Numbered from the stretch's first letter, positions 5,751-51,822 are shown. The stretch is DNA of 64,000 nucleotides from an uncultured Alphaproteobacteria bacterium (GCA_963812775.1 CAWEWH010000008.1:60468-124467); one strand, 5' to 3'. Numbers and translations: made by a program. Notes: a model not told the origin generated them from the sequence alone.

Positions 5751-6612
5751 ATGGAGGCGCCAGCCGGCCACGCCCTCAACGCCGACCAGGTCGCCTATTG
5801 GAACGGCACCGGCGGGCGGCATTGGACCGAGCGCCAAGCCTCGCAGGACGCCATGCTGGCGCCCGTCGCCGACCTGCTCATCGCTCGCGCCAGGCCGGCG
5901 GCGGGCGAGCGCGTCATCGACGTGGGCTGCGGCTGTGGCGCCACCACCATCGCTCTCGCCGCCAAGGTCGGGCCCAAGGGGCACGTGCTCGGCGTCGACA
6001 TCTCGGCCCCCATGCTGGCGCGGGCGCGCACGCTCGCCCCGCCGAATGCGCCGCTTGAGTTCGTCCTCGCTGACGCCACGGTGCATGGCTTCGAGCCCGA
6101 AAAATTCGATCTCCTCGCCTCGCGCTTCGGCGTCATGTTCTTCGCCGAGCCGGCGGTGTCGTTCGCCAATCTGCGCACGGCCCTGAAGCCGGGGGCGCGC
6201 GTCGCCTTCGCGTGCTGGTGCGAGCCGCGCGACAATCCCTGGATCATGACGCCGCTGCAGGCCGTCTATAAGCACGTGCCGCGCCCGCCTCGGCCGGGTC
6301 CCGATGGAGCCGGGTCCGTTCTCGTTCGCGTCGGAGGAGCGCGTGCGCGGCATCCTCACAGCGGCGGGCTTCGCCGAGGTGGCGATGCAGCCGCAAAACA
6401 TCTCCCTCGACATCGCGGCGGGCGGCGGCCTCGAGGCCGGCGTCGACACGGCGCTCAGCGTGGGGCCGGCCGCCCGCGCGCTGCAGGATCAGCCACGCGA
6501 GGTCATCGAGGCGGCGCGCGTCTCCGTGCGCGAGGTGCTGGCGCCGCTCGTCAAAGGCGACGGCATCCTGCTGCCCGCCTCGTTCTGGATCGTGACGGCG
6601 CGCGCGCCCTGA
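5751..6612 (+). pseudogene. class I SAM-dependent methyltransferase, interrupted by a +1 frameshift near 6290-6305
   Basis: The N-terminal part (VIDVGCGCGATT, SAM-binding motif I) is in one frame up to ...HVPRPPRPGP. The C-terminal part (MEPGPFSFASEERVRGILTAAGF...) continues in the +1 frame as ORF 6304..6612. Confidence 0.6.
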
Positions 6613-6650
6613 ACAACTCGCGGCTTCGGTCGCGGGCGCTCGTGAGCCTA

Positions 6651-7022
6651 TCAGATCTTGAACCATGCCGTGGCGCTGTCATAGAAGAAGCGCTCATGCA
6701 GGATGCGGTCCCCGCTCCACCGCTGCAACGCGACCTCTTCCAGCCTTGTGACCGCGTCGTTGTTGTCGATCCTGTCAAATGTCCATCTTATCGCGACGTT
6801 GTCTCCATCCACGAGGATCACCTCCGGCTGGTGCGTGTGCATTCGTTTGATCCGGCTCAACGCTCGCTCCTCGTGTGCGGCTAGCACGTCGCGTCCGCGC
6901 CGCGGCTCATGGCGATTTTCCTGCATCGTCGCATTCTCGTGATAAAAATCCTTGATCGCGCGGACATGGTCGCCGGACACCACGACAGAAACGAACTCGG
7001 TAACGCGGGCGCGATCAGGCAT
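6651..7022 (-). CDS. SnoaL-like / NTF2-fold protein (ketosteroid-isomerase-like)
   Basis: 123 aa from MPDRARVTEF...; NTF2-like pattern. Confidence 0.5.
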   Translation of the reverse strand: MPDRARVTEFVSVVVSGDHVRAIKDFYHENATMQENRHEPRRGRDVLAAHEERALSRIKRMHTHQPEVILVDGDNVAIRWTFDRIDNNDAVTRLEEVALQRWSGDRILHERFFYDSATAWFKI

Positions 7023-7168
7023 CGCAAGGTTTCCTTTCATTGGTGGAGCGGGATGCTCGTGCTCGATCTTGAATCCTGCACGGGCGATGGCACGATACGA
7101 CCTCGACGTGCTATGCACCACCCAGATGGGCCCGGAGGTTGGGCCGTGGGCAGCAGGGGGCGCACGAA

Positions 7169-8134
7169 ATGTCGACCGTCATCGTGGGCGGCGCTGGCTT
7201 CATCGGCCGTCGCCTTATTCCGCTTCTCCTTGCACGCGGCGAGAGCGTCGTGTGCTTCGACATCAATGTCACCGGCGCGAGCACCTTCGGCGACGGCGTC
7301 AAGCTCGTGCGTGGCGACGTGACCCAGTTCGACGATGTGATGGCGGCGGTGGCCGAGGCAAAGCCTGAACGCCTCGTCAATTTATCCTATCATATCGGCA
7401 GCGACCTGCCGCCGCATATCGCCACGAAGCTCAATGTCCTCGGCATGGACAATTGTTTCGAGGCGGCGCGCCTTTGCGGTGTCAAGCACACGATGTACGC
7501 AAGCTCGCTTGCGGTGAACGGTCAGCAGCGGCACTTCGGCGAACGCCCCCTCACCGAGGACGACTTCCGTCACGGCGACTACCAGTATGCCGTCTGCAAG
7601 ATTTTCAACGAATGGCAGGCCAAGGATTACCGCGACAAGTACGGCATGATCATCACCGGCCTGCGTCCCGCCAACGTCACGGGTCCCGATAAGCTCCGCG
7701 GCTCGGTCGATCACGTCAACTGCATCGTCCAGCCGGCACGCGGCAAATCCGTCACGTTCCCGCATCGCGACGCCATGCGCTGCCCGATCCATGTCGAGGA
7801 CATCGCCGAAGTGTTCGCGCGCCTGATCATGGCCGAAAAGCCCAAGCACGCCATCTACAATTCCGGCGGCCACGCGATCAGCCTCGGCGACCTTGCCGCC
7901 ATGGTGCGCGAGTTCCTGCCCGACGCCGACATCCGCTTCGAGCGCGACAGCGGCGGCCGCGAGATATCCGGCAACTTCCTGATCGACAACACCCGGCTCG
8001 TCGAGGAGTTCGCCGTGCAATACGCGCCCTTCCGCAGCCGGGTGCTGGAAATCATCAACGACATCCGCCGCGAGGAGGGGAAGCCGCCGATCGGCGATCG
8101 CACGGCGGCGGCGCCGAGGGCGGCGCGCGGCTGA
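7169..8134 (+). CDS. NAD-dependent epimerase/dehydratase family protein
   Basis: MSTVIVGGAGFIGRRL Rossmann motif and a YxxxK active site (YAVCK). Confidence 0.8.
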   Translation: MSTVIVGGAGFIGRRLIPLLLARGESVVCFDINVTGASTFGDGVKLVRGDVTQFDDVMAAVAEAKPERLVNLSYHIGSDLPPHIATKLNVLGMDNCFEAARLCGVKHTMYASSLAVNGQQRHFGERPLTEDDFRHGDYQYAVCKIFNEWQAKDYRDKYGMIITGLRPANVTGPDKLRGSVDHVNCIVQPARGKSVTFPHRDAMRCPIHVEDIAEVFARLIMAEKPKHAIYNSGGHAISLGDLAAMVREFLPDADIRFERDSGGREISGNFLIDNTRLVEEFAVQYAPFRSRVLEIINDIRREEGKPPIGDRTAAAPRAARG

Positions 8135-8144
8135 ACGGCCCGTT

Positions 8145-8498
8145 TCAGATGTCGATGCCGTAGTGCTCCGCGCCGGCCGACTTGAAATTCTGCGTGAGCT
8201 CACCGGCGCGTCGGAAGGCTTTGACCGTATCGCCCGCCGACAGGGCGACCGTCGTGGTGATGTCGGTGAGGCTGCCTCCCGCGGCGGCCGCGAGCACCGC
8301 CGATATCATCGTCGGCTCGTCGGGAGCTTCCGCGATGATGAGCCAGTCGTATCGCCCGAGCGTCAGATACCACCCGATGAGGCGCGCACCGGCTGCGTTG
8401 AACAGCTCGGTGACGGCTTCCGATCGATCTTCGGGTTTTGCGGTCATCCCCTTGATGGCACGAGCCGTATATCGGCCTTGACAGATATAGATCGTCAT
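8145..8498 (-). CDS. GYD domain-containing protein
   Basis: MTIYICQGRYTARAIKGM... matches the GYD family; a GGGAGGA Shine-Dalgarno precedes the start. Confidence 0.65.
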   Translation of the reverse strand: MTIYICQGRYTARAIKGMTAKPEDRSEAVTELFNAAGARLIGWYLTLGRYDWLIIAEAPDEPTMISAVLAAAAGGSLTDITTTVALSAGDTVKAFRRAGELTQNFKSAGAEHYGIDI

Positions 8499-8752
8499 CC
8501 TGGTCCTCCCGCGTACGGAGCCAGGGGGATGATGCGCTTGCGCCCAGGCGCGCGCAACGGCCCGCGCCCTGCCGTCGTCCGCCATATGATCCGCCACATG
8601 ATGCCACATGAGCAAAATGCGGCAGGGGACGCGCGAATTCGTTTGCGCCCGAAAGCTAAATTACCCTAACGTTTTGGACAACGCCGCCGGGGGCGCGAGC
8701 CCGGCCGCGGCTGGTTGATCTCGCGCACGAAGAAGCGCGAGGCACGAGGCAA

Positions 8753-9871
8753 ATGAACTTCGATTTTTCCGACGACCTGAAGATGCTGCGCCAGGAGGCC
8801 AAGAAATTCCTCACCGAGCGCTCGCCGCCGGCGGCGGCGCGGCGCATCCTCGAAGGCCCCGAGCCTTACGACAAGGCGCTCTTCGACGAGATGGCCAAGA
8901 TGGGTTGGACGGGCGCCGCGATCCCCGAGGAATTCGGCGGCGCCGGGCTCGGTCATCTGGCGCTTTGCGTGCTGGCCGAGGAAATCGGTTATGCGGTCGC
9001 CCCGGTGCCGTTCTCGTCGTCCGTCTATCTCGCCACCGAAGCGCTGCTTCTCGCCGGCAGCAACGAGCAGAAGAAGAAGTGGTTGCCGAAGCTCGCCTCC
9101 GGCGAAGTCATCGGCACCCTCGCCATGGCGGAAGTGCCGCCGGTCTCCGACCCGCGCCGGCTGCGCACCACGGTCGACGGCGGCAAGGTGAACGGCACCA
9201 AGGTGCCCGTGCCGGACGGCGACGTGGCCGATATTGCGGTCGTGGTCGGGCGCTCCGATCGTGGCGTCAGCCTCGGGCTCGTCGACCTCAAGGGCGCGGG
9301 CGTCAAGCGCGAAGCCGTCACCACGGTCGATCCGACGCGCTCGCATGCCCGCGTCAGTTTCGACAACGCCGCCGCCGAGCCGCTCGGCGCGCCGGCCGAC
9401 GGCCAGGCGCTCTTGCGCAAGCTGCTCGATCGTGCCGCCGTGCTCATCGCCTTCGAGCAGGTGGGCGGCGCCCAGGCGGCCCTCGACATGGCCTGCAATT
9501 ATGCCCGCGAGCGCTATGCCTTCGGGCGTCCCATCGGCTCGTTCCAGGCCATCAAGCACAAGCTCGCCGACATCTATGTGTCGACGGAGCTGGCGCGCTC
9601 CAACGCCTATTACGGCGCCTGGGCGCTGTCGACTGACGCCAAGGAGCTGCCCATCGCCGCGAGCGCGGCGCGCGCCTCTGCCAGCGACGCCTACTGGCAC
9701 GCCGCCAAGGAGAACATCCAGACGCATGGCGGCATGGGCTACACGTGGCAGTTCGACTGCCAGTTCTACTTCCGCCGCGCCAAGCTCTTGGCGTTGTCGC
9801 TGGGCAGCGCGCGTGAATGGAAAGACCGGCTGATCAGCGAGCTCGAGACGCAGAACCGGGCCGCCGCCTGA
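8753..9871 (+). CDS. acyl-CoA dehydrogenase family protein (372 aa)
   Basis: Acyl-CoA dehydrogenase N, middle and C domains (GGMGYTWQFDCQFYFRRAK near the C-terminus). Confidence 0.8.
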   Translation: MNFDFSDDLKMLRQEAKKFLTERSPPAAARRILEGPEPYDKALFDEMAKMGWTGAAIPEEFGGAGLGHLALCVLAEEIGYAVAPVPFSSSVYLATEALLLAGSNEQKKKWLPKLASGEVIGTLAMAEVPPVSDPRRLRTTVDGGKVNGTKVPVPDGDVADIAVVVGRSDRGVSLGLVDLKGAGVKREAVTTVDPTRSHARVSFDNAAAEPLGAPADGQALLRKLLDRAAVLIAFEQVGGAQAALDMACNYARERYAFGRPIGSFQAIKHKLADIYVSTELARSNAYYGAWALSTDAKELPIAASAARASASDAYWHAAKENIQTHGGMGYTWQFDCQFYFRRAKLLALSLGSAREWKDRLISELETQNRAAA

Positions 9872-9881
9872 GGAGGGCACG

Positions 9882-11114: not shown

Positions 11115-11166
11115 GGGTCTTCACCCTTCCCCCGAGGGGAGTGTGAAGAACAGAGAGGCCAGGAAC

Positions 11167-12399: not shown

Positions 12400-12430
12400 C
12401 CCGCGCCCGTTTTCTGTTCAGCGAGGCAAC

Positions 12431-22124: not shown

Positions 22125-22199
22125 TTACTTCTTCTTCTTCTTGGCGGTCTTCTTCTTCGTAGCCTTCTTCGCGGTCTTCTTTTTCGCAGCTTTAGCCAT
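22125..22199 (-). CDS. 24-aa lysine-rich micro-protein MAKAAKKKTAKKATKKKTAKKKKK
   Basis: ATG preceded by a GGAGAG Shine-Dalgarno at 8-nt spacing, a TAA stop, then two tandem terminators. 14 of 24 residues are Lys. It is not in the supplied ORF track because it is too short. Confidence 0.55.
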   Translation of the reverse strand: MAKAAKKKTAKKATKKKTAKKKKK

Positions 22200-22399
22200 G
22201 TTGAGCTCTCTCCAATGGTTTCGAGATTGCGAACAGGAGCTTGATCGAGCGGACAGCGCGAGCGACGGGCGTCGCTTCGGGGTCCGGTCGATGCCGTTGC
22301 CTCAAGTCCGGCCCCGCAGCTTGCGGGCCCGAGATAACGACAACGACGACGCCAACAATTTCTCCTTCAGCTCCTGCCAGCCATTCGCGGTTGTGCGAA

Positions 22400-23030
22400 C
22401 ATTGGTAAATTAACACATATGGCATGAATATCCAAATCACCCTGCAAGGAAGCCAAGGCTTCCGAGGGGCAATGACTTGTCAACGAACGCGTTCATCAAG
22501 TATTAAATTGGCTGTTATTGCGCCGAACACTTTGTCAAGCACAGAATAGTACGATGAAATACTTGCGCCTTGCAGCAACGATTGGCTGACCCGCAACTGC
22601 TAGAGGCATCGACATCGCGAATCACAAAATGTGGGGCAGTATTTTGTCATAACAGGGCACATATTTACTGCGGATTCGACCATCGCTCCCGCCCCGAGAC
22701 GACGCGCGCGAAGTATAAATTCTTTGCAACGAACCTGCTGTGGACAAGTGCGAGGATCGTTTTTGCGCGCGTCGTCGTGTCGTCGCGTCGACAAAGAATC
22801 GCATCAGCGCTGATTCGCAAGGCGCGTCGTCACGACGCGATCACGCGCACAACGTCATCGCGCGGCGTCCATCACGTTCGAAGATGTGTCGGTCGCCCGC
22901 AGCGCGTGTCGCTCTCTGCCTCCGTCGCGCCTTGCCGCCGCGAGACGCGTGGCGGGATGACAAAGCCGAGGTGCCTTCCTATGTCGTATCGGGAGCGACG
23001 GCCGGTGCCGCCGGCATGAACGAGGAGGGA
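22400..23030. promoter_or_regulatory. unusually long AT-rich non-coding region with three adjacent palindromes (GGAAGCCAAGGCTTCC, TGACTTGTCA, GAACGCGTTC at 22447-22494) and a structured GC-rich 5' leader
   Basis: There is no credible ORF. GC content drops sharply relative to the flanks. The palindromes are seen directly. The region lies upstream of the DUF2076 gene. Confidence 0.45.
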
Positions 23031-24761: not shown

Positions 24762-25575
24762 ATGTCAAAGTTTTCCCACCACGATAGCGTCTCCTGCGGA
24801 ACTGCACCCATGACGACGAGCCGGACTGCCTATCGCATCGAAAGAATGGACGGGCTCCTGAAGCCTGCCGCTTCGGCGCACCAACTCGGCAAGATGAACG
24901 GGGCGACCGATCCGCGTCTCGATGCGGTCATCGCCGGCCTGCAGGAGTTGAAGCAGCTTATCGGTCCGGCGCAGCGCCAGGCGACGGACGTCATCGAAGC
25001 CTACCGGACCCAGCTCCAGGAGATATTCGAGCTCAAGCTTGAGTTCGATCGCATGAAGGAGGCGATCGAAAGCACAAAGGCCCAGCTCGCCGCCATCCGT
25101 CGCCTGGAGAGCGAAGGACGCGGCATGCGCCGGGTCAACAGCGAGCTCGACGAGGTCGTCGTCGACACGGAACGGGCGACAACGTCCATCCTGTCGGCGA
25201 CCGAGGCGATCGAGGCGCAGGTGCGGTCCCTCCGCGCTGGCATGGGCGACGCAACCGACCAGGCGCGCGCCGACATCGTGCTGCAGAAGGTGGTTGAGCT
25301 CTACGAGTTCGTGCAATTTTCATGACGTGACCGGGCAGCGCATCGCCAAGATCGTCGGCGTGCTCATATTTCTCGAGGAACGGCTGCAGACGGTGATCGA
25401 TGCGTGGGCCGGGCTCGATGCCTTCCGCGGATTTCAGAACGTCGCGCCCGCAGCCGCCCTCGTCGCGGCTCCCGTCGTCCCAGGCCCGAAGCACGAGGAA
25501 CTGCTGCACGGACCGCGCTTGGCCATCGACAGCGGGCATGCCTCCCAGGACGACATCGACGCGATGTTCGGCTGA
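24762..25575 (+). pseudogene. CheZ-like protein phosphatase, frameshifted at ~25315-25325 inside a TTTT run
   Basis: ORF 24762..25325 ends ...VVELYEFVQFS*. The overlapping +1 ORF 25294..25575 carries the CheZ signature FHDVTGQRIAKIVGVLIFLEERLQ (the D-x-TGQ active-site motif). Confidence 0.55.
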
Positions 25576-31418: not shown

Positions 31419-31460
31419 GAAGGGCCGCCGGGAATCCGGCGGCCCTTCTGTTTGTGGCTC
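31419..31460. terminator. intrinsic terminator AGGGCCGCCGG-gaat-CCGGCGGCCCT, then TCTGTTTGTGG, after groEL
   Basis: An 11-bp perfect stem followed by a T-rich tract; it is convergent with the SPFH gene. Confidence 0.7.
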
Positions 31461-32611
31461 ACGTCTCCTGCGGCGTCTTCAGCCGCACGAGCTTCGTCAG
31501 CAGCGCATCGAAGCCGCCGGCCTCGCCGGCGTGCAGGTCGATACGGCCCACCTTCTCCACCAGGCGCTCGAGCGACTTCGAGCTCCTTGAGGCGGAGCAG
31601 CAGCGGGTTCTCGTCCATGAGCTTGGCGGTGTTGAGCAGCGAACGGGTCGCCGCCGTCTCCTCATGGCGACGGATCAGGTTGGCCTTCGCCGTCCGCTCC
31701 GCCTCCACCACCTTGTTGACCAGCTCACGGATCTCGCCCGGCAGGATCACATCCTTGACGCCGAGCTCCGTCACCTCGATGCCGGTGTCGGCGATGCGCT
31801 CGCGCACGAAGGCGCGCAGCTCATCGTCGACCGCCGACTTGGCCGACAGCACCTCGTCGAGCGTGCGTGCTGCCACCGCCTCGCGGATGGCGAACTGCAC
31901 GAGCCGGTACAGCCAGCCGTCGAGGTCGGCCACCACACTCACGGCCTTCTCCGGATCGACGATCCGGCGGAACGCGGTGAGCGTCACGCGCAGCGCGATG
32001 CGATCCTTGGTCAGCATCTCCTGGGCGGTGATCTCCACCGCCTGCGGACGCAGATCGAGCCGCTTCACCTCGACCTTGCGGCCGACCGTCCAGTAGGCGT
32101 GGCGGCCCGGCATGAGCCGCGTCACCAACCGGCCCTCGACGTAGAGCAGGCCCGCCTCGTGGTTCTCGACCACCGTCTCGGCCACGTAGGCCGTGAGCTT
32201 GCGGTCGATCATCGCAAGGTGGCGCGGCTCGACCGTCGGGTCGGCCGTCACGTCGATGCGCTCGACCTCCACCTTGGTGGCGACCTTCCAGAACACGCGC
32301 GTCTGCCACGGCGCCATGAGGTGCAGCGGGCGGCCATCGAGGCGCACGATGGCGAGCTCGTTGGCGCCCGTCTCCACCGCCTCGAACAGCTCGGCCGCCA
32401 GGTCCGGCCGCGCCGCCTTGATCACCGCGTAGCGGTCGGCCGGGAACTCTGTCCGCACCACGGCGAACGTCTCGACATTCAGCGCCCGCAGCGGGTCGAA
32501 CAGCCGGTGCCGGCCCGGAGCGAGCACGCCGTCCAGGCGACCGTTCTTCATCACCAGGGCGCGCTCGCCGTCCTTCACCGTCACGGCCAGTGTCAGGATG
32601 TAACGCGTCAT
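31459..32611 (-). pseudogene. SPFH/band-7 domain protein, frameshifted near 31581-31590
   Basis: The main ORF loses similarity after ...LLLRLKELEVARAPGG. The true C-terminus SLERLVEKVGRIDLHAGEAGGFDALLTKLVRLKTPQET continues in ORF 31459..31665. Confidence 0.55.
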
Positions 32612-34227: not shown

Positions 34228-34398
34228 TTACGACCCGGCGCCCCGTTCCTCGCGCAAGGTCATGACGAAGTCGTAGATCAGCAGCGCCATCACGGCGACC
34301 ACGATGATGATCAGCGGCAGCGCCTTCACCCACCACAGCATGATGCCGAGAAAGCCGAGCACCATAGCAATGCCGATGATCCCCGTGATCAATGTCAT
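34228..34398 (-). CDS. 56-aa two-transmembrane micro-membrane protein, translationally coupled to the amidase
   Basis: MTLITGIIGIAMVLGFLGIMLWWVKALPLIIIVVAVMALLIYDFVMTLREERGAGS. Its ATG overlaps the amidase stop (TGATGA). Confidence 0.5.
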   Translation of the reverse strand: MTLITGIIGIAMVLGFLGIMLWWVKALPLIIIVVAVMALLIYDFVMTLREERGAGS

Positions 34399-35793
34399 CA
34401 CACCCTGCCTTTCTTGCCGGCTGTCTCGTTGGGCCGGGCAGGTGCCCGCTTGGTCCTGGAGCGCGCACCGCTCTTCAGATTCTTGACCAGCCAATGGGCG
34501 GTGCGCAAGAGCCTTGCATCATTGCCGCGCCTGCCGACGAGCTGCGCGCCGATGGGCATTCCTGATTGCCCCTCGAGCAGCGGTAGGGACACCGCTGGGG
34601 TGCCAAGATAGGTCCAGATCGTGCAGAAGACGGGGTTGCCCGTCGAACTCGAGGCCACGCGGCGCCTCGCCCGGCGCCGCCGGCGTGAGGATGGCGTCGT
34701 ACTCGTCAAAGATGGGATCGAGCGCCGCGTAGAGTCGCTCCCGGCTCGCCACGGCCGTCAGGTAGTCGACGGCCCGTGCCTGGCGTCCGCGCTCGATCAG
34801 CTGCCGCAGACGGGAGCTGAGCTGCTCGCCGCCCTTCTCGTAGTCGCGGTGGAGATTGTGCGCCATCTCCACTTCCATAACGGTGCGGTGCATGTCGATG
34901 GCGGCCGCGAAGCTTTCCCCGACCTCCACTTCGCTCGCCTTGTCGCTAAGAGCCGCGACAAGCTCGGGAAACGCCTTTGCGGCGTCCTGTTCGACGTGCG
35001 TCCAGGCCGGCGACTTGACGAAGGCGAAACGCGGCGGCAGCGGCGGCGCCGCGATGGCCACGCTCGCCAGCGGCGGGCGCGCCAGCGGCCGCGTGTCGGC
35101 GTCGTCCTCGTCGAAACCCGCCAGCGTCTCGGCCAGCAGCGCCGCGTCCTCGACGCTGCGCGTGAACGTGCCGACGTGATCGAGCGTGCGTGACAGAATG
35201 AGCGCGCCGCTGCGCGGGATGAGGCCATGGGTCGGTTTGAAGCCGACGACGCCGCAGAAGGCCGCCGGCCGGATCACCGAGCCGTTGGTCTGCGAGCCGA
35301 TGGCGCCAGGCACCATGAAGGCCGCCACGGCCGCCGCCGAGCCGCTCGACGATCCCCCGGGCGTGCGGGCCGGATCGTGCGGGTTCTTCGTCTTGCCGGG
35401 ATGGAAGTAGGCGTATTCGGTGGTCACCGTCTTGCCGATGATCACCGCTCCCGCGGCGCGCAGGCGCGCCACGGCGGCGGCATCGCGCCGCGGCGTGCGG
35501 CCGGCCCATAGCGGCGAGCCGAGCTCAGTCGGCATGTCACCGGTGTTGAAAATATCCTTCACGCCGACTGGCACGCCATGCAGCGGCCCCGTCGCCTTGC
35601 CGTGCCTGCGCCAATCGTCGGCGGCTTCGGCCTGGCGCATGGCGTGCTCGGGATCGAGGAAGGCCCACGCCTCGATGTCGGCATCGACCTCGCGGATGCG
35701 CGCGAGGCAATCGCCGACGAGCTCGACGGAGGTGATGCGTCCCTCGCGGATGTCCGTTGCCGCCTGTGCGAGGCCGAGGGCCGAGAAGCTCAT
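34398..35793 (-). pseudogene. amidase (amidase-signature family), frameshifted near 34630-34710
   Basis: The main ORF carries the signature GGSSSGSAAAVAA. Its C-terminal segment (GNPVFCTIWTYLGTPAVSLPLLEGQSGMPIGAQLVG...) is found in a different frame, ORF 34398..34709. Confidence 0.6.
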
Positions 35794-40847: not shown

Positions 40848-40959
40848 GGCGGGCTCCCGTGGGTGGCGGACCTGGCGATTGTAGTCTTGCGCGATGACGG
40901 GCGACAGAGGACATGCGCGGTGTCGTCCCGGCCGAGCGAGCGGCGGCCACGCGCGCCAC

Positions 40960-41200
40960 CCTCCCCATCCGATGTCGGCAGAGCCGACATCGGCACCACA
41001 ATGGGCAAGTCGGGCAGGCCCGACTTGCCTGGGGGAGGGTCGGCGAGAATGCGAAGCATTCGAGCCGGGGTGGGGTGATCACCGAAGCAGATCTCGTTTC
41101 TCACCCCACCCCGATCGCGCTTCGCTGCGCTCGCTGCGATCGACCCTTCCCCTCAAAGGGGAGGGTGAAGGAAGAGGCCACACCCTCCCGTTTTCGCGGT
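40960..41200. repeat. cluster of nested G/C-rich palindromic (REP/RIME-like) elements
   Basis: CCACCCTCCCC...GATGTCGGC-aga-GCCGACATC...CAAGTCGGGC-agg-CCCGACTTG...GGGGGAGGG; GGGGTGGGGTGA-N22-TCACCCCACCCC; CCCTTCCCCTCAAAGGGGAGGGTGAAGG; CACACCCTCCC. Confidence 0.6.
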
Positions 41201-41776
41201 TCGTGAGAACCCGAAGCCTGGGAGCGGTGCGGCCCGAATTCAGGAAGGGCCCACGCGGGAGGTCCGAGCGGCGGGCGCCAACGGCGCGAGCGCTCAGAAG
41301 AACGTAGTCATTTCAGGAGCCGCCGGGCCAAGCGCCCAGACCTCCCGCGCACGGTGTTTTGTGGCCAGTACGCTTGACGAGATCGCGCGTTGCCTCCCGC
41401 AACCGTCCACGGCGTTGACGTGCCGCTTCTCCCGGCAGAGGGCCGGGTCGATCCGTAAAGCGCCTTAGCCGCCCCGTCTCCCGTCTGCGAACGGGCGTTG
41501 GAGCCACCGCCCAACCCGCACTGGCGTGTCCCTCGCGGGCCACCAGCACTGGCCATTGAGACATCGCCCACGCGTCACCGCGGGTCCTGCCTCGCCGTCG
41601 TCACCCACACCTGGCTCGCAAGGCCTTGCGCGCCCTTCCGGGGACGTGGTGATCTCAACATAGCCTGAGAGGCAACCTGAGTCAAGCTTTGTTTCTCCAG
41701 CAGAGACATAATTCTCCGGGCGCCATGGCGGGGCTGCCCCCGGCCATCCACGCTGGCGGGGCGCCGTCGCCAGAAG

Positions 41777-42409
41777 CTACCGCCCGAAAATGCCCTTGAA
41801 GAACTGGGCCACGGAATTGCGCTTCTTCTTGCGCGCCAGCTCGGCGGCGTCCTTCACCCAGGCAATCTGCACCACCTTGCGCTCGCCGGTGAACGGCCGG
41901 TGGCCGTGCCAGGATTTGTCGGAGCGCAGGAAGCCGAACACCGTGCCCATGGTGGGCGGCACTTCCATCGCGTAGGGCTCGAAGTGATCCTCGTCGTAGA
42001 GCACGCGCAGGCGGCCGCCGTCGTCCTTGCTCCAGTCGTCGTTCATGTAGACCAGCATGGTCATGACCTTGGACGGCCCGTCGGTGTGGATGGCGCCGTA
42101 CTTGGTCTGCGAGCGCTTCATGATGGTGGTGAGGCGCGGATAAGGGTGCAGGTCCTTGCCGAACTTCTTCGACAATTCCTCGGTCAGCTCCTCGCCTTCG
42201 AGTTCCTCGATGAGCGTCTTGAAGCGACCCTTGAGATCGACCTCGTCGACCGTGAGGTAGCCGGGCTTGGCGATACTCGGAAAATCGCGCTTCAAATCTT
42301 CGATAGCGTCCCTTCTGAGAAAGCCGCTGCCGAGGAAGAAATCATAGGGCTCCCGCGACAAGGCGGCGCCGCGGATGGCCTGCGGTTCGAGGAGCGTGAG
42401 CGCCATCAT
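41777..42409 (-). CDS. 2OG-Fe(II) oxygenase superfamily protein
   Basis: 210 aa from MMALTLLEP with an AAGGAG Shine-Dalgarno. It has an HTD...HGH facial triad (HTDGPSKV ... SWHGHRPF). Confidence 0.65.
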   Translation of the reverse strand: MMALTLLEPQAIRGAALSREPYDFFLGSGFLRRDAIEDLKRDFPSIAKPGYLTVDEVDLKGRFKTLIEELEGEELTEELSKKFGKDLHPYPRLTTIMKRSQTKYGAIHTDGPSKVMTMLVYMNDDWSKDDGGRLRVLYDEDHFEPYAMEVPPTMGTVFGFLRSDKSWHGHRPFTGERKVVQIAWVKDAAELARKKKRNSVAQFFKGIFGR

Positions 42410-42611: not shown

Positions 42612-44726
42612 GTGAAAGAACGCAGCGGAATCTTGACACTGGCGCTCGTCGTTGCCGCCTTTTCGATTGTCGCTCTTCTTGTCTCCGCCTTCGCCGCGAA
42701 ATCCCTGCCGCTCTACGTGTCGGTGAGCGGCCTCGCTCTGGCCGGCATCCTCTATGCCGCGCGCGGCATCTCGCCCTATGTGCGCGTCTTCATCATCATG
42801 TACGCGTTCGGTTACCTCGGAATGGGGACCCTGGGGCTGCTCTCGGCGCTGGGCTGGCTGCCGGCCATCGTCGAGGCGATGCGACCGCCGGATTTCTCCG
42901 CCACGGCGGCGGCGGTCTTCGCCGCGATCGTCTACGGCGTCTCGTTCCTGCCGGTCATTCGCCGCATCACCGATATGGCCGATCCCTACTATCAATCCGA
43001 CGAGCCGGCGACGCGCGCCACGGGCGCCTTCAAGTGGATGGGCAACACTGAAGGGCAGATCGGCCAACGTCTCGTCGCCCTGTCGATCTTCATCAGCTTT
43101 GCCCAGGTGGCGATGAACATCAGGGTCAATCTCTGGTACCGCGACCTGTTCAACGCGCTCCAAGACAAGAACGCCGACGCCTTCTGGTATCAGCTCCTCG
43201 GCGTCTTCGTGCCCCTCGCCACGGTGTGGATCATCATTGGCGTCTATGACGTGTTCGTCGATTATTCGCTGTGGATCCGCTGGCGCGCCTGGCTGACCAA
43301 GAAGACGTATGGGCGCTGGCTCGGCCACGGCACGCACTATCGCGTTTCGCTGGCCGGCGACGGCACCGACAATCCCGACCAGCGCATCCAATACGACATC
43401 AATCAATTCGTGCAGCAGACGATGAGTTTCTCGATCCGCCTCATGTCTCAGGCGGCGACGCTGGTGTCGTTCATCGTCATCCTGTGGGGGCTGTCACGCG
43501 ACTTCATCATCCCGGGCACGGATTCCGTCATTCCCGGGCTGCTTGTCTGGATGGTCATCGCCTGGGCGCTCATGGGTACCTGGCTGACGCACCTCATCGG
43601 CCGCAAGCTCATCGCCCTCGATTTTCATCAGGAGCAAGTCGAGGCCGATTTCCGTTTCTCGCTGGCGCGCTTGCGCGAATATACCGAGCAGGTGGCGCTG
43701 CTGCGCGGCGAGCGGGCGGAGGAGGCGCGGCTCGGCCACAGCTTCAGCGCCATCATCGCCAACTTCCTGCAGATCATCAACCGACGCATGAAGATCACCG
43801 CCTTCACGGGCGGCTACAACCAGTCCAGCGTCGTCTTCCCCTACATCCTGGCCGCGCCCTCGTTCTTCCTCGGCAAGATCACCCTCGGCGTGTTCCAGCA
43901 GACGGCGTCGGCCTTCAATCGGGTTGACACGGCGCTGTCGTTCTTCGTCAACGCCTACACGTCGCTCGCCGCCTACAAGGCGACGACCGAGCGCCTCGCC
44001 ACGTTCAACGAGTCGATGCGGCGCGCCGAAAGCCTCGCCGGCGGCGGGGCGGGCGTGGCCATCAAGGATCACCGCGCCGGCGACGTGGTCATCGAGAACC
44101 TGAAGCTCGCCGTGCCCGACGGCCGCACCATCGTGCGGGCCGACGAACTCATCTTGCGCGGCGGCGAGAGCGCCCTGCTGACCGGCCCGTCTGGCTCGGG
44201 CAAGTCGACGCTGTTCCGGGCGCTTGCCGGCATCTGGCCGTATGCGTCGGGTGACGTGCGGGTGCCGGGCGGCAAGGACGTGATGCTGGTCCCGCAGCGG
44301 CCCTATCTGCCGACAGGGTCGCTGCGCACGGCGCTCGCCTATCCCGGCGTCGAGATGCAATATCCCGACGCGGAGATCCGTGGCGCGCTCGATGCGGTCG
44401 GCCTTGGCCAGCTCGCCGACAGCCTCGACGTCCACGACAATTGGGGACAGCGGCTGTCGGGCGGCGAGCAGCAGCGCGTCGCCATCGTGCGCGCGCTTCT
44501 CGCCAAGCCCGAATGGCTGTTCCTCGATGAATCCACCGCCTCCCTCGACGACGAGATGGAGGAGCAGGTCTACGCCACGCTGCGCCAGCGCTTGCCGGGC
44601 ACCACCATCGTGTCCATCGGTCACCGCGCGACCCTGAAGCGGCTGCATCAGCGGCGCATCGAGATGCGGCCGTCGGCCGACGGCACCTTCGCGCCGGCCG
44701 ACGCCAAGCAGGCGGTGCCGGCCTAG
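42612..44726 (+). CDS. ABC transporter permease/ATPase fusion of the SbmA/BacA-like (YddA / Rv1819c-type) family
   Basis: N-terminal SbmA_BacA-type membrane domain (NIRVNLWYRDLFNALQDKN...) and a C-terminal nucleotide-binding domain (Walker A GPSGSGKST, signature LSGGEQQRV). Confidence 0.8.
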   Translation: MKERSGILTLALVVAAFSIVALLVSAFAAKSLPLYVSVSGLALAGILYAARGISPYVRVFIIMYAFGYLGMGTLGLLSALGWLPAIVEAMRPPDFSATAAAVFAAIVYGVSFLPVIRRITDMADPYYQSDEPATRATGAFKWMGNTEGQIGQRLVALSIFISFAQVAMNIRVNLWYRDLFNALQDKNADAFWYQLLGVFVPLATVWIIIGVYDVFVDYSLWIRWRAWLTKKTYGRWLGHGTHYRVSLAGDGTDNPDQRIQYDINQFVQQTMSFSIRLMSQAATLVSFIVILWGLSRDFIIPGTDSVIPGLLVWMVIAWALMGTWLTHLIGRKLIALDFHQEQVEADFRFSLARLREYTEQVALLRGERAEEARLGHSFSAIIANFLQIINRRMKITAFTGGYNQSSVVFPYILAAPSFFLGKITLGVFQQTASAFNRVDTALSFFVNAYTSLAAYKATTERLATFNESMRRAESLAGGGAGVAIKDHRAGDVVIENLKLAVPDGRTIVRADELILRGGESALLTGPSGSGKSTLFRALAGIWPYASGDVRVPGGKDVMLVPQRPYLPTGSLRTALAYPGVEMQYPDAEIRGALDAVGLGQLADSLDVHDNWGQRLSGGEQQRVAIVRALLAKPEWLFLDESTASLDDEMEEQVYATLRQRLPGTTIVSIGHRATLKRLHQRRIEMRPSADGTFAPADAKQAVPA

Positions 44727-44864
44727 CGGAAAGAGGACTACAGGTAACGACAGCATTCGCGGTCCGCCGTCGTCCGCTACCCCGTCTGCTGGCTCGAGCT
44801 CGGAACCATGCTGTGGCGGCTCAACGGCAGTGCGGTGAGGCCGCAGCGTCAGGGATGAACCCCT

Positions 44865-47000
44865 ATGAAATATCTCAGCTTGGCCGTCGGCCTGTTCGCT
44901 GTCCTCGCCCTCGTGTTCGGGGTGTACGGCGAGGACGGATTCGTCATCGCCCTCGGCGTCGCTGCCGCCATCTGCGCGGCCACGACCTATCTGTCGCAGG
45001 CCATGTCGAGCTTCCTCAAAATCTTTGCGGCCATTTTCGCCGTCGAGACGGTGCTGTTCGGTGCCGCCTTTCTTCTGGGCAAGACCCCGTACTGGCCGGA
45101 AGGCTACGACGCCTATCTGATCCCCGAGTCGCTGCCCCTGACCATCGCCCTGTTCGGCATCCTGGTCTACGCCGTCTCCCACATTCCGGTCATCAAGGCG
45201 ATGACGCGCATCGCCGACCTTTACTACGACAGCGACGAGATCGGTCGTGCGCGGCTTCTTCCCGGCTTCGAGTTCCAGGCCCTGGAGCGGCGCATCGCCG
45301 CCGCCATGGTGGTGTTCGTGGTGCTCGTGAACCAGGCGCAGGTGGCGATCAACGTCCGGCTCTCCTTCTTCAACCGCGACTGGTTCAACGCCATCCAGGA
45401 CAAGCGCCAGGACGATTTCTGGCAATTGCTGATCTGGGTCTTCACCCCCTTGGCCTTCATCTATGTGGCGAGCGCTGTCGTCGAGTTCGTCGTCCAGTCG
45501 ATGCTCGTCATCCGCTGGCGCCGCTGGCTCACCGACTACTATGTGACACGCTGGCAGTCGGCAGGTGTGCACTATCGCATGGGACTGGCCGACGGCGGCG
45601 CCGACAATCCGGACCAGCGCATCGCCGAGGACGTGAACCGTTTCATCGCCGGCGGCACCTCGTCGGCCGCTTCCGGCTACGGCATCTACTCATATTCGAT
45701 CCTGCTCATCTCGACCCTGAGCTCGCTCGTGTCGTTCTCGATCATCCTGTGGACGCTGTCGGGCAACTACGAGGTGCCGTTCATCAACAGGCCGGTTCCC
45801 GGATTCCTGTTCTGGGTCGCGCTCGTCTATGCGGTCATCGGCACGCTCGTCACCCATCTGATCGGCCGGCCGCTGGTGCGTCTCTATTTCGCGCGCCAGC
45901 GCTACGAAGCCGACTTCCGCTTCTCGCTGGTGCGGCTCAGGGAATATGCCGAGCAGATCGCGCTGATGCGCGGCGAGCCGACCGAGCGCGCCACTTTGCG
46001 CCAGCGTTTCGGCGGCGTGATCCGCAACTATGTCGACATCGTGCGGCGGCGGAAATGGCTGCTGTTCTTCACCAACATATACGGGCAGATCAGTCCGATT
46101 ATTCCCTACGTGTTCACGGCGCCGTTCTACTTCGCCGACAAGATCCAGCTCGGCGTCATGACGCAAACGGCGAGCGCCTTCGCGCGCGTCGACGAGTCGC
46201 TGAACTTCTTCGTCACTTATTACGTCGAGCTGGCCGACTTCAAATCCGTGCTCGACCGGCTCACGTCGTTCGACAATGCCATCGAGCGGGGCAGGGCGCT
46301 TGGCGCCACGCCGCCGCGCATCGACATCGCCGAGCTGAAGGATGACAACCTGCATATCGAGGACCTCGATCTGAGGCTGCCGCAGGGAACGAGCATCGTC
46401 ACCATTCCCTCGCTCACCCTGCGGCCCGGCGAGACCACCTTGGTGACCGGTCCATCGGGCTCGGGCAAATCGACGCTGTTTCGCGCGCTCGCCGGCATCT
46501 GGCCGTTCGGCGAGGGCCGTGTCACGACGCCGGCCGGCAAGAGCCTCATGCTCCTGCCGCAGCGGCCATACATTCCCGTCGGCACGCTGCGCGGGGCCAT
46601 CGCCTATCCGTCGGAGCCGAGCACCTATGACGACGGCGCCGTCACGCAGGCGTTGATCGCCGCGCGCCTGCCGCAGCTGATTGGCCGGCTCGACGAGGAG
46701 GCGCAATGGGCCCAGATGCTGTCCCTCGGCGAGCAGCAACGCGTCGCCATTGCGCGCGCGCTCCTCGCCAAGCCCGATTGGCTGTTCCTCGACGAGGCGA
46801 CGGCGGCCCTCGACGAGGATCTGGAGGAGGATGTCTACAAGCTCTTGGCCGAGCGCCTGCCCAAGACGACGATCGTCTCCATCGGCCACCGATCGACGCT
46901 GCGCGCCTTCCACACGCGGCGCATCGAGATGCGTCCGGAGCCGGGCGGCGGCTTTTCGCCGACCGATGCGCGCGGGACGGTCTGCCGGCGTGTACGGGAC
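44865..47000 (+). CDS. second SbmA/BacA-like ABC permease/ATPase fusion (tandem paralog). The 3' end is unresolved because no in-frame stop is found until 47690
   Basis: It is collinear with the upstream paralog (SFFNRDWFNAIQDKR..., GPSGSGKST, LSLGEQQRV). By homology the protein should end shortly after ...RRIEMRPEPGGGF; the stop has probably been lost to an indel. Confidence 0.7.
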
Positions 47001-47003
47001 CGG

Positions 47004-47584
47004 CTAGATCGACCGGTCGAACACGATCTCGCCGTTCGGGCCTTTGAACACCAGGCGGCCGGCCACGAGGTCCCATTTCTGCGCCGTGCGCAGCGCCGTC
47101 AGGAACGCCGTCTCGGTGTCCATCAGCTCCTTGGCGCAGCTGCGCTTGGTGAAGGTGATCGGCCCGACCACGATGCCCTGCTGCTTCAGCGGGTAGGCGA
47201 CCGCCGTGTAGGCGTTGCAGCCGCCGAAGCCACGGGCGCGGAACTGCTTGTCGAGGGTGAAGCCTGGTTTCTCGGCGCTGGTGAACGGCTTGCCGTTGAG
47301 GCTGACGGCCACATAGGTATTGCCGAGCGGGAACTGCTTGTCATCTTTCTTGGAAGGCGGCGGGGTGGAATCTCGGGGCCCTTGTTCTCCTGTTCCTTGG
47401 GGAAACCCTTCTGCGCATCGGCCGGCAGCGCCAGCGCGACGGCCAGGAGAGCCGGCAAGACAGAGATGAGAATTCGGCTCGCGATCATGGCAAGTGCCTC
47501 TACCCACGGCACTCTACGAAATGAGGCCCCCGTCCGGCAACGGTGCGATAGGCCGCGAGCGTGGCAATTCGGGGGCGGGGGCAT
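47004..47584 (-). pseudogene. META-domain (HslJ-like) secreted protein, frameshifted in a C-run near 47370-47400
   Basis: The signal peptide MIASRILISVLPALLAVALALPADAQ is in ORF 47186..47584. The META domain (FPLGNTYVAVSLNGKPF...RLVFKGPNGEIVFDRS) is in ORF 47004..47507, shifted by one base. Confidence 0.55.
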
Positions 47585-47623
47585 TGCGGCGTCGTGCCTG
47601 CGCTTGTCGACGCAACACCGGCT

Positions 47624-48628
47624 CTATCGGGAATTTCCCAGCCGTCGGAACAGCCGCTCGCTCAACGCATCGTTGCGGCGGAACGCATAATCGAGCTGGC
47701 GCACGCTGACCCCCTCGGCGCCGGCTCCCGTCAGCGCCTCCACGAGGCCGAACACGCCCTCGAGCGGGCAGATCAGCGCCACAGCGCCGTCCGCAGCCGG
47801 CGCACCCGGCGAGGGGCGGGCGGCGAATTTTGCCGCAAGTGCCCCAACTTGATTTGCCCCGAGATTCGGCGCCCGCGCCGTGACCTCGCGGGTGGTGCGC
47901 GCCTCTTCCTCGGCCGCGATGCGTGCCAGGATGGCGGCCGCGGCCTGCCGGGCGGTGTCGCTCCAGCAGGCCTTCAGGGAGGCCACGAGATTGGCCTGCG
48001 ACTTCAGGATGGTGCCGTCGTCCAGCACCTTGAGGCCGTTGGCCGCCAGCGTCGCCCCGGTGGTGGTGATGTCGACGATGATCTCGGCCGCGCCGGTGGC
48101 GGGCGCGCCTTCCGTCGCCCCGAGGCTTTCGACGATGCGATAATCGGCAAGCCCGTGCTGGGCGAAGAAGCGCCGCGTCAGGTTCACGTATTTGGTGGCG
48201 ACCCGCATCTTGGTGCCGTGGCGGGCGCGCATGTCGGCCGCCACCTCGTCGAGATCGTCCATCGTTCTCACATCGATCCAGGCCTGCGGCACGGCGACCA
48301 CGACGTTGGCCTGGCCGAAGCCGAGCGGCGTCAGGAGCTCGACACTCGTCTCGGCGGCGGCGATCTTCTCGCGCACCAGGTCCTCGCCGGTGACGCCGAT
48401 ATGCACCGAGCCCGTCGCCAATTGCCCGACGATCTCGGCGGCCGACACGAACAGCACCTCGACGCCCTCGAGGCCGGCGACCGCGCCGCGATAGTCGCGG
48501 GCGCCGCCCGGCTGCACGAGGTCGAGGCCGGCGCGGGCGAAGAAATGCGCCGCGTTCTCCTGCAGCCGCCCTTTTGACGGCACGGCAAGGACGAGCTTGG
48601 CGCCACCGCCGTTGCTGGACATGCTCAT
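47624..48628 (-). CDS. hisG: ATP phosphoribosyltransferase (extended ~330-aa form)
   Basis: [13 protein letters not shown]...[13 protein letters not shown]...[11 protein letters not shown] is the HisG catalytic core. Confidence 0.85.
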
Positions 48629-49744
48629 GCGCTGCCCTCGAAGCGCTCGAGCCACAGCGAGCAGCCGACCGCCGGGACCGGCCGCGACGCGCCGAGGCGG
48701 GCGATAAGGCCGTCATAGCGGCCGCCGCCGGCAACGGCCCGCTCGTCGGCTGTCGGCGGTCGGTGCATCTCGAAGATGAAGCCGGTATAGTAGTCGAGAT
48801 TGCGCGCGAAGCTCGCCGAGAAGTCGAGCTCGCCGACATTGATGTCGCGTGCCGCCATGAAGCCGGTGCGCGCCTCGAAGGCATCGACCACCTGGTCGAG
48901 ATCGAGCTTGGCTTCCGTTGCGAGACCGCGCACGGCCAGCGCCACGGTGTCGGGGTCGCCGTTGATGGCGAGATAGCGTTCGAGCACGGCGCGCGCCTCG
49001 TCGCCGACCGCACCCGAGCGGCGCGCCGCGCGCTTCAGGAACCGCTCGGCGATCTCGCCGGCGGTGCGGCCGCCGACGCGGCTGATGCCCGCGATGGCGA
49101 GCACGTCCTCGACGAAGGCATGCGCCGCCTTCTCGTTCTTGCCGTCGATGGCGGCGAGCAGCCCGGCATAGTCGCCGCTGCGCGTCGGCCGGCGCCGGCG
49201 CGGGCGCGGCGTCGAATTTCGGCAGGCCCCTGCCGCGCACGATGCGGCGCGTGAGCCGGCGCTTGCGTCGGGGCGTCGAGGCCGAGCTGGTCGATGAGGC
49301 GATCGAGAATGCGCCATGTCGCCGATCGCGATCGACGGCGCGGTCAGGCCCATGAGCGCCGCCGCCTCGATGGCGAGCGACAGCACCTCGGCGTCGGCAG
49401 CGTCGGCGTCGATGCGGCCGATGGACTCGATGCCGGCCTGCGCGAACTCGCCGGTCTCGCCCGAGCGCAGCCGGAACACCGGTCCGGCGTAGCTGCAAGG
49501 CCGCGACGCGCTCCGACCTCGTGCGCGGGCGAGGTAATGGCGGCAGACCGGAATGGTGTATTCCGGCCGCAGGCACAGCTCCTGGCCGTCGGCCTCCTCG
49601 GTGATGAAGAGGCGCCGGCGGATGTCCTCGCCGGAGAGGTCGAGGAACACGTCGGCGGGCTGCAGCACGGGCGGCTCGAGCGCGCGCGTAGCCGTCGCGC
49701 GAAAAGAGCGCGATCAGGGGCTCCGTCATGTCGGTCGCGGCCAC
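48625..49744 (-). pseudogene. hisZ: ATP phosphoribosyltransferase regulatory subunit HisZ, split by at least two frameshifts
   Basis: The N-terminus (MAATDMTEPLIALFSRDGYA) is in one frame and the middle (LQPADVFLDLSGEDIRRRLF...RPEYTIPVCRHYLA) in another. A nonsense stretch follows, then ...FIFEMHRPP...[14 protein letters not shown]. Confidence 0.6.
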
Positions 49745-49850
49745 GATAAACTCCGTCGCCTCGTCGTCCTAACAGCCGTTGGTTCGGATTTTCGACGCTT
49801 TTGAGCCGCCACAGTGCATTGGGTGACACGTCAGCACGTGAACGGACTGC

Positions 49851-51464
49851 TCAGGGCCGCGCGGCGGGAGAAAAGGATTGGTTAAAGCTTGGCGTGCCGG
49901 GACAGCACTTTCCACACGGCGTCGAGGAGATGCTCCTCCGCCGACCGCGAACTGCGCCTCCGCCTGCTTCTGGCGGTGGTCGTCGCGGTCCTTGCCGCAG
50001 CGCCGCGAGCTCGGCCCCGAGGATGAGATCCTTAACGGTGACCTGATTCCTGGCCTTCTCGTCCGACCCCTGGATGACGGCGCAGACCGCGCCGCGCCGG
50101 TCGGCATATTTCATCTGCGCCCTGAAGCCGGACGTCGCCGAGATACATCTCGGCGCGGACCAGCGGGTTGCTGGCGGGGCCGCGCATGTCGCGCAGCTGC
50201 GTGACCATCTTCTGGTAGTCGCCGATGCGGCGCCGTTATCCATGACGGTGACGACGACGAGCGGCCGCAGCGTCTCGCCGCGTGACCAACGGCGAGCTCA
50301 CCGCCTTCAGCGCCGCGACGAGGCGCGACACGCCGATGGAGAAGCCGGTGGCCGGCACGTCCTCGCCGCGGAAGCGGCCGACGAGGCCGTCATAGCGCCC
50401 GCCGCCGCCGACCGAGCCGAAGCGCACCGGGCGGCCGTCGTCGTTCGTCACCGCGAAGGTGAGCTCGGCCTCGTAGACCGGGCCGGTGTAGTATTCGAGG
50501 CCGCGGACGACGGAGGGGTCGACTGACGACGCGGTCGCCGTAGCCGGCGGCCTGCGACCAGCGTCGCCGATCTCGCGCAGCTCGGCGCACGCCTTCGATC
50601 CGGTCGCAGAGCTGACGTCATCGCGCCAGCGTCGAAATTCGCGAGCGCCGTCCGCTCGAGCTCGCGCTGCACTTGTCGCGACGCTCTGTCCTCGACCCGA
50701 GCCGGTGAAATGCAGGACCCGAGTCGATAGCCTGACTCGGCCGCTCAGCCCCGCGCCCTTCGTGAAGTCGCCGCTTTCGTCCTTGCGGCCCTCGCCGAGC
50801 AGCAGCTCGCACGCCCTCGACCCGAGCCGGTCGAGCTTGTCGATCGCGCGCAGCACGGTCGAGCCGCTGGCCGGCCTTCTCCGCGCCCGCCAAGGCCGAT
50901 CGCCTCCATCACGCCGTCGAGCACTTTTCGGTTGTTGACCTTGATGACGTAGTCGCCGCGCTTGATGCCGAGCCGCTCCAAGCGTGTCGGCCGCCATCAT
51001 GCACATCTCGGCGTCGGCCGCGACGGAGGACGCGCCGACCGTGTCGGCGTCGAACTGCATGAACTGGCGGAAGCGGCCGGGGCCCGGCTTCTCGTTGCGG
51101 AACACGCAGCCGGCGCGATAGCTGCGATAGGGCTTGGGCAGCGGCGTCGAAATTCTCGGCGACGTAGCGGGCGAGCGGCGCGGTCAGGTCGTAGCGCAGC
51201 GACAGCCACTGCTCGTCGTCGTCCTGGAACGAGAACACGCCCTCGTCGGGGCGGTCCTGGTCGGGCAGGAACTTGCCGAGCGCGTCGGTGTATTCGACGA
51301 ACGGCGTCTCCACGCGCCTCGAAGCCGTAGCGCTCATAGGTGTCGCGGATGGCGACAAGCATGCGCTCGGTGGCCGCGATGTCCTCTGCCTCGCGGTCCA
51401 TGAAGCCGCGCGGCAGCCGCGCCTTGGGCTTGTTGGTCTTGTCCGGCTTCTGCTGTTGCGACAT
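49851..51464 (-). pseudogene. hisS: histidyl-tRNA synthetase, split by at least four frameshifts
   Basis: The fragments lie in three frames. The N-terminus is [50 protein letters not shown]. Motif 2 is [14 protein letters not shown]. Motif 3 is [14 protein letters not shown]...[13 protein letters not shown]. The anticodon-binding fragment is [34 protein letters not shown]. Confidence 0.6.
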
Positions 51465-51607
51465 GGCGCGGCATAGCAAGCCGGGCGCCAGAAGTCAGTA
51501 ATCAGCGATGAGAAAAGGTCGGAATTCCGCCGTCGGCTATGGGCGCGCGCCTGCGCTCGGAGGCCGGTCGGCCTCCGATTGCCGTCACGGCTCGCCGATT
51601 GCTGGAA

Positions 51608-51822
51608 TCAGATCAGCTGGATGTTGCCGGCGGCCTGCTTGCCGCGCTCGGTGACGATCTCGTACTTGATCTTCTGTCCCTCCCGCAGGGGCGGGATGCC
51701 GGCGCGCTCGAGCGCGCTGATATGGACGAAACGTCCTTCGAGCCGTCATCGGGCTGAATGAATCCATAGCCCTTTTGGGTGTTGAAGAACTTTACAGTGC
51801 CCTGCGCCACAATGGCCTCCAT
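51608..51822 (-). pseudogene. cspA: cold-shock protein CspA-family, with a 1-nt deletion in a T homopolymer
   Basis: VAQGTVKFFNTQKGYGFIQPDDGSKDV is followed by a frameshift. Reading 'gttttc' in place of 'gtttc' restores FVHISALERAGIPPLREGQKIKYEIVTERGKQAAGNIQLI*. Confidence 0.6.

Follow-up and report, generated by a model that had tools for sequence, protein, structure and literature searches.

We analysed a 64,000-nucleotide (nt) stretch of DNA from an uncultured Alphaproteobacteria bacterium (GCA_963812775.1, CAWEWH010000008.1:60468-124467; hereafter the window, numbered from its first letter), in which nine genes are broken by small insertions or deletions (indels). They encode a class I S-adenosylmethionine-dependent methyltransferase, a CheZ-like phosphatase, an SPFH/slipin protein, an amidase, the second of two tandem SbmA/BacA-type ABC transporters (ABC#2), a META-domain lipoprotein, HisZ, HisS and CspA. 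An earlier note on this DNA had listed these nine genes as split between frames or, for the transporter, as lacking a stop codon, and all nine proved to be disrupted. The same note took a high frameshift density to be general, whereas we found the events to be very unevenly distributed. At least 26 lie in one 2,999-bp indel island at 48734..51732 (1 per 115 bp; 23 one-base insertions, or '+1' events, and 3 one-base deletions, or '-1' events), and about 7 are scattered over the other 61 kb (1 per 8.7 kb). The island holds 79% of all events at a density 76-fold higher than in the rest of the window (binomial P = 8.5e-29), and insertions make up 88% of its events (bias P = 4e-5). More than 40 genes of the window other than the affected ones are intact, and its GC content is 66%.

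The source organism belongs to a poorly sampled lineage of Hyphomicrobiales, the closest HisG proteins with a taxon name (Camelimonas, Chelatococcus, Beijerinckiaceae, Bosea, Methylobacterium) being ~65-71% identical to that of the window; one public protein, P0132, encoded on an NCBI/ENA contig of 451,858 bp, matches the window HisG at 100% identity over 334 amino acids (aa). The closest comparator at the DNA level was a JGI metagenome contig (locus L005, ~80-88% nucleotide identity), which is syntenic in reverse orientation with window positions 35.8-61.9 kb and carries intact genes for an aminotransferase, CSD, HisS (517 aa), HisZ (363 aa), HisG, META (167 aa), one ABC transporter, a 2-oxoglutarate (2OG) oxygenase and an esterase. 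A closer strain, assembled independently from JGI sample 3300078620, encodes a HisG (P0123) that is 98.5% identical to the window protein and a 518-aa HisS (P0133) that is ~96% identical outside a variable insertion domain. Its gene orders HAD, EAL, aminotransferase, CSD (71 aa), HisS and HisG, META (162 aa), ABC are intact throughout; this comparison was made with proteins and gene tables, against a strain that is near-identical to ours rather than the same. A scan of metagenome contigs with the repaired HisS returned no match above 71% identity. Frames were called with a codon-usage Viterbi frame map and a frameshift-aware protein-to-DNA aligner, which replaced blastn gap counts against L005 that were too noisy at ~82% identity. 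We set the aligner's frameshift penalty where ten intact neighbour genes score zero events; the sole exception among the intact controls is one doubtful frameshift pair in a poorly conserved EAL gene. At 34408 and 62762 the Viterbi map changes frame at ordinary gene junctions, which we discounted as frameshifts (the one at 34408 being a true junction with the gene for a 56-aa membrane protein).

The island runs through three genes on the - strand. In hisZ (48625..49729), the aligner placed at least nine indels: '+1' events at ~49684, 49527, 49511, 49498, 49314, 49268, 49183 and 48768, and a '-1' event at ~48734. In hisS (49882..51464), it placed at least 16: '+1' events at ~51317, 51145, 50985, 50897, 50863, 50688, 50571, 50558, 50527, 50283, 50237, 50233, 50130, 50000 and 49942, and a '-1' event at ~50615, with further compensating pairs probably present near 50810-50821. 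Neither gene is thus the carrier of a single frameshift. The third gene, cspA (51608..51822; 71 aa from an ATG at 51822), has one '-1' event at 51731/51732, where the third base of a valine codon is missing (GAC GT- TTC). Adding one base after GACGT restores DVFVHISALERAGI exactly, as the earlier note had found; its assignment of the loss to a run of T residues is possible but not established, since the third codon position is variable, being GTC in L005 and GTA in the window's second cspA. The adjoining hisG (47624..48655, - strand) provides an intact control on the flank of the island, with no frameshifts and no window-unique residues. A separate observation concerns the 3' end of hisZ: a protein of a 91%-related organism (P0131, from a 24-kb ENA contig) is a 651-aa HisZ-HisG fusion created by a frameshift near window positions 48734-48768, just before GGCGGCGGC, which suggests that this spot is error-prone in more than one assembly.

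Outside the island, four genes have one '+1' event each. The methyltransferase gene (5751..6612, + strand; 285 aa when repaired) has an extra base within GATGGAG at 6300-6306, a shift supported by a three-frame reading and by the Pfam methyltransferase domains; its homologs are ~280-290 aa long and read PGPEDPGPFAFA across the junction, where the window has CCC GAT [G] GAG CCG. In the CheZ-like gene (24762..25575, + strand), the event lies within CGAGTTCG at 25304-25311. The L064 and L077 homologs have FEACNFQDLTGQR, so that the shift falls in GAG TTC G TGC, upstream of the catalytic helix; the TTTT run at ~25316 to which the earlier note had assigned it (AAT TTT CAT, N-F-H) is already in the downstream frame. 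A PDB search with the CheZ-like protein gave no match. The SPFH/slipin gene (31459..32611, - strand) has its '+1' event at 31573-31580, + strand CGACTTCG and coding strand CTC GA[A|G] TCG, and its repaired length of 383 aa is that of ~120 SPFH homologs. The amidase gene (34398..35793, - strand) is shifted at 34644-34651, + strand CGAACTCG and coding strand CTC GAG [T]TCG ACG, and the Pfam Amidase profile spans the junction over its full length (positions 1-445/445).

As an aside on the SPFH/slipin protein, its homologs in Bradyrhizobium, Xanthobacteraceae, Stellaceae and 'Candidatus Acidoferrum' are 80-84% identical to it and no homolog above 84% was found, although for adjacent genes the relatives reach 85-98%. 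The pattern could stem from unusual conservation or from horizontal transfer.

The remaining two isolated disruptions adjoin each other. ABC#2 (44865..47005, + strand) is the ortholog of the single ABC transporter gene in L005 and aligns with it in one frame over residues 1-706/708 at 85% identity. As had been reported, its stop is lost: after residue 706 of the 708-aa ortholog there is no stop codon and the frame reads through to 47690. Relative to the ortholog, two extra bases lie ~5 codons ahead of the expected stop (46965-46985), and ~50 nt of the intergenic hairpin that relatives carry between the ABC and META genes is missing. The META gene (47004..47488, - strand) has one '-1' event at 47373/47374. 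The earlier note had placed it in a CCCC run, but L005 and L006 both read GGC GCT GAC GAT TCC, and the lost base is the C of GAC, directly 5' of GATTC (a GANTC site at 47368, + strand).

Several further differences surround these two genes. The relatives' spacer between the convergent ABC and META genes is 56-67 nt long, GC-rich and inverted-repeat-like (L005 12079-12145), and is possibly a bidirectional terminator; in the window it has shrunk to ~15-18 nt (46985-47004) and the ABC stop codon has gone with it, and we could not tell a real deletion from a mis-assembly here. The tandem transporter genes (42612-44726 and 44865-46985, both + strand) encode proteins ~46% identical to each other, and only ABC#2 has an L005 ortholog, the first being an extra paralog. 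A search of 185,579 species-representative genomes with octapeptide words from this first transporter found no close relative, only distant ABC ATPases. Between hisG and META, L005 (11146-11442), L006 and a third contig have a 98-aa hypothetical gene that the window lacks, its gap measuring ~135 nt (47489-47623); in the 98.5% strain the gap is 266 nt and the gene is not called there either.

We conclude, with considerable confidence, that the frameshifts are consensus errors of the deposited assembly, produced by two processes (one acting in the island, the other at isolated, GANTC-linked sites), and are not mutations of the organism. The indels, their clustering, their contexts, the selection signature of the genes and the intact orthologs can all be read directly from the alignments. 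Once the frames are corrected, the affected genes contain no in-frame stops and are colinear and full-length with their orthologs. Ratios of non-synonymous to synonymous substitution rates (dN/dS) against L005 are 0.20 for hisS, 0.15 for hisZ, 0.05 for CSD and 0.15 for META, compared with 0.11-0.32 for intact neighbours, and the dS of the frameshifted genes is not raised relative to those neighbours. A three-way comparison (relative-rate test) detected a small excess of window-unique residues in HisS, most of them directly beside indels; we rejected this excess as a sign of decay, as the residues adjoin the indels.

Real gene decay, for example in a host-restricted symbiont in which hisS, hisZ, cspA and the others would be true pseudogenes, is a very improbable alternative. 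It could draw on the presence of the indels in the deposited record itself, where one gene or more has been annotated with its frameshift, and on the poor sampling of a lineage whose nearest named genera share ~70% HisG identity. It is contradicted by the lack of nonsense codons and of large deletions within the genes, by normal dN/dS and dS, and by the excess of 23 insertions over 3 deletions; bacterial pseudogenes typically show a deletion bias. Histidyl-tRNA synthetase is essential, and decay would have struck hisS at least 16 times while leaving the adjoining hisG with no hit and no unique substitutions, in a window of 66% GC with over 40 other genes intact. The comparison with a close relative that the earlier note had proposed also speaks for errors: in the 98.5% strain, CSD (71 aa), HisS (518 aa) and META (162 aa) are intact and in the same gene order. 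Against real pseudogenes speak, in sum, the 16 or more hits that hisS has taken without substitutional decay, the bias of the events towards insertion and the intact copies in the 98.5% strain. The earlier note's choice of errors over pseudogenisation accordingly holds, on the grounds of no stops after correction, normal dN/dS, insertion bias and an intact near-identical strain.

Two other biological explanations fare no better. Programmed recoding, in which ribosomal frameshifting or transcriptional slippage would restore the products, is prompted by nothing beyond the existence of the frameshifts; every affected gene has single-frame orthologs, and at least 16 shifts in one gene share no common slippery motif, so that we consider its likelihood negligible. 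It is also highly doubtful that the 3-kb insertion burst is real, the product of a recent local mutational event such as error-prone repair synthesis or recombination between diverged alleles with insertions at mismatches. If it were, hisS would have become a pseudogene only recently, and another part of the genome would supply its function.

The earlier note had attributed the errors to indels in homopolymers, a mechanism that our placements do not sustain: at most one or a few of the ~33 events lie in runs of three or more. For at least 12 of the first 18 island '+1' events analysed, none of the bases that could be the extra one belongs to a run longer than 1, and cspA alone is compatible with a run of at least three. 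Nor does event density track homopolymers, since the island has 6.0 runs of four or more per kb and the window 6.3, despite the 76-fold difference in indels. Generic homopolymer-length miscalls, spread in proportion to homopolymer content, nevertheless fit some sites: cspA could be a TTTT read as TTT, and each isolated '+1' event can be taken for a lengthened two-base run (TT in the CheZ-like and amidase genes, AA in SPFH, GG in the methyltransferase). However, only one of these 18 island events is unambiguously beside an identical base, whereas ~50% would be expected even under random insertion; orthologs contradict the TTTT placement in the CheZ-like gene and the CCCC placement in META; and the island is no richer in runs, the run-length spectrum of the window being that of its relative. 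As this mechanism would also leave the 76-fold clustering unexplained, we judge it improbable.

The island events have a different and more specific character. Removal of a single base recovers the close relative's peptide exactly at nearly every island '+1' site, and at all island '+1' sites the surplus base and the one beside it can be taken for a pair of alleles of one position. For instance, CTC[G|A]CC encodes either the Ala of P0133 or the Thr of L005, [C|T]TG specifies Leu with both bases, and third-position G|C pairs are numerous. Of the 23 '+1' events, 15 have a synonymous alternative allele and 21 a conservative one. By codon position (1/2/3), the events number 5/0/18, and natural differences between the window and L005 are distributed 20/15/64%. 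Random insertions into intact window genes produced 30-36% synonymous alternatives (p~2e-4), and a stricter null, limited to CG- or GC-generating insertions outside homopolymers, produced 33% (p = 0.002-0.02). The loose random-insertion null had overstated the support for two alleles, and we lowered our confidence after applying the strict null and the natural spectrum. In two HisS columns, the alternatives could be set against 119 homologs: column 51 holds only V (103) and L (16), the two residues encoded by [C|G]TG, and column 201 holds mostly T (100) and A (9), matching [G|A]CC. All four of the '-1' events analysed lack a third-codon base.

Long-read assemblies with collapsed alleles are known to acquire indel errors and false frameshifts near allelic variants (PMC8445201). 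We infer that the island consensus may combine a pair of closely related strains or haplotypes, or may be a low-coverage patch that was poorly polished; differences by substitution would have become insertion or deletion columns, and the island deletions would be sites at which a polymorphic third-codon base was dropped.

Three of the isolated events instead share a sequence context. On their coding strands, the CheZ-like and amidase genes both have CGAGTTCG at the shift and SPFH has CGAAGTCG, a shared 8-mer; for each of these three '+1' events, out of four isolated ones, one possible repair yields CGAGTCG and with it GAGTC, a GANTC site. The META deletion is 1 nt from GATTC. GANTC is the N6-adenine methylation motif of CcrM in Alphaproteobacteria, and nanopore assemblies are reported to contain errors in or near methylated motifs, including GANTC/CcrM in Brucella, at some copies only (PMC12392509). 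In simulations, a random '+1' insertion was repairable to GANTC with a 1.0-1.6% chance (0.010-0.016 per event), so that three or more of four isolated events at GANTC has p = 4e-6 to 2e-5; the same test against all 22 '+1' events known at the time gave p ~1e-3 to 5e-3. The window contains 82 GANTC sites, 26 of them GAGTC or GACTC, against ~200 expected from base composition. Such depletion is typical of CcrM-methylating bacteria, and here it is no more than consistent with a CcrM-bearing alphaproteobacterium. The isolated events would then be nanopore base-calling or polishing errors near methylated GANTC, a link that the sequence contexts support but do not prove.

Several points weigh against this two-process account. 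Platform, strain mixture and methylation have each been deduced from the sequence. The nearest DNA comparator is just ~84% identical, and the 98.5% strain was compared as protein only. The GANTC association was spotted after the fact; each of its three sites can be repaired just as validly by assuming an extended 2-mer (TT or AA) or a pair of alleles; the window has six CGAGTCG/CGACTCG copies that are intact; and the methyltransferase, cspA and ABC#2 events are not near GANTC. Within the island, support for two alleles under the strictest null amounts to just p = 0.002-0.02. Furthermore, 19 of the 23 allele-like pairs are C|G and C|T is almost absent, whereas the natural spectrum of the lineage comprises 35-48% C<->G and 21-31% C<->T changes; a technical bias towards C/G insertion may produce part of the allele-like signal.

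This last point leads to a serious rival for the island, one in which the disruptions are also an artefact. Here the island would be an unpolished or low-coverage patch of noisy long reads, such as a bridged gap in a hybrid assembly, with a C/G-insertion bias and no second strain. Clustering with sharp edges between clean genes fits such a patch, as do C|G pairs far above the natural single-nucleotide polymorphism (SNP) spectrum with nearly no C|T, closely spaced compensating -1/+1 pairs, and the few extra window-unique residues beside indels. However, the enrichment of synonymous and conservative alternatives persists against the CG/GC-creating null (p = 0.002-0.02), codon position 2 has no event, and in HisS columns 51 and 201 the implied alternatives coincide exactly with the natural ones. 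We therefore regard a purely noisy patch as possible but, on balance, unlikely.

Other features of the window lie apart from these events. We rejected extra frameshift islands in the low-coding-signal regions at 21.9-23.7, 40.9-41.8 and 56.9-64 kb, which hold small or low-complexity intact genes or give no family match. L005, in which UDG and Crp adjoin each other, lacks the 3.9-kb block of small intact genes at 56965-60835, which comprises rpsU (S21, 57763-58080), the second cspA (60171-60374), and genes for a small membrane protein and for several 80-120-aa products. Two paralogous small open reading frames (ORFs), at 57284-57634 and 62038-62559, share the motif VAHCIGLHLYLDRT / VAHCIAVHFYLETR followed by ADYWVPG / ADYRVPG. 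Two segments of ~0.8-0.9 kb each, 40908-41787 and 22186-22960, have no coding signal and no Pfam or Rfam match; the former is absent from L005, where the gap between the esterase and 2OG oxygenase genes is ~110 nt. The sole match in an Rfam scan was a tRNA-Gly.

The disruptions are almost certainly a sequencing or assembly artefact and not a biological feature. At risk of misannotation as pseudogenes or fragments are the essential hisS, hisZ, cspA, META, the amidase, the CheZ-like phosphatase, the methyltransferase and the ABC transporter. The earlier note's warning that annotation would be misled has already come true for SPFH: the deposited record itself carries frameshifts, its SPFH call (P0253, wrongly extended to 406 aa) being the window's frameshifted ORF, 100% identical over 90% of the query. 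Through such calls, completeness would be underestimated and metabolic reconstruction misled in a lineage of Hyphomicrobiales that is poorly sampled. A rule that pairs frameshifts with homopolymers would overlook most of these errors. Two flags for an unreliable long-read consensus can instead be read from the consensus itself, namely dense non-homopolymer C/G insertions at synonymous sites and indels at the methylation motif of the lineage.

The window can be compared with four kinds of known system. It resembles the pseudogene-rich genomes of Mycobacterium leprae and Sodalis in its many frameshifted genes, but real decay brings nonsense codons, deletions and relaxed dN/dS and spares essential genes, none of which is seen here. 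The second kind is the gene-fragmenting indel of long-read bacterial genomes and metagenome-assembled genomes. In such assemblies (for example, Kastor, PMC12007338, and Trycycler, PMC8442456), single-base indels split conserved genes without decay, as in the window; the errors are usually described as deletions tied to homopolymers and scattered genome-wide, whereas here a single 3-kb island contains 79% of events, insertions account for 88% of those in the island, and the sites are non-homopolymer. Third, in Trypanosoma brucei Tb427 (PMC8445201), indels near allelic substitutions vanish once the haplotypes are separated, and the window indels likewise lie at polymorphism-like sites. Tb427 is a diploid eukaryote whose case was verified with reads, whereas the window would derive from putative co-assembled bacterial strains deduced from sequence alone, and its C|G excess differs from the natural SNP spectrum expected under a Tb427-like collapse. 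Finally, the methylation-linked nanopore errors described at GATC, CCWGG and GANTC/CcrM in Brucella (PMC12392509) are mostly substitutions backed by signal-level methylation calls, whereas the window events are indels seen only in an assembled sequence; in both cases, the errors lie near the motif and affect some of its copies only.

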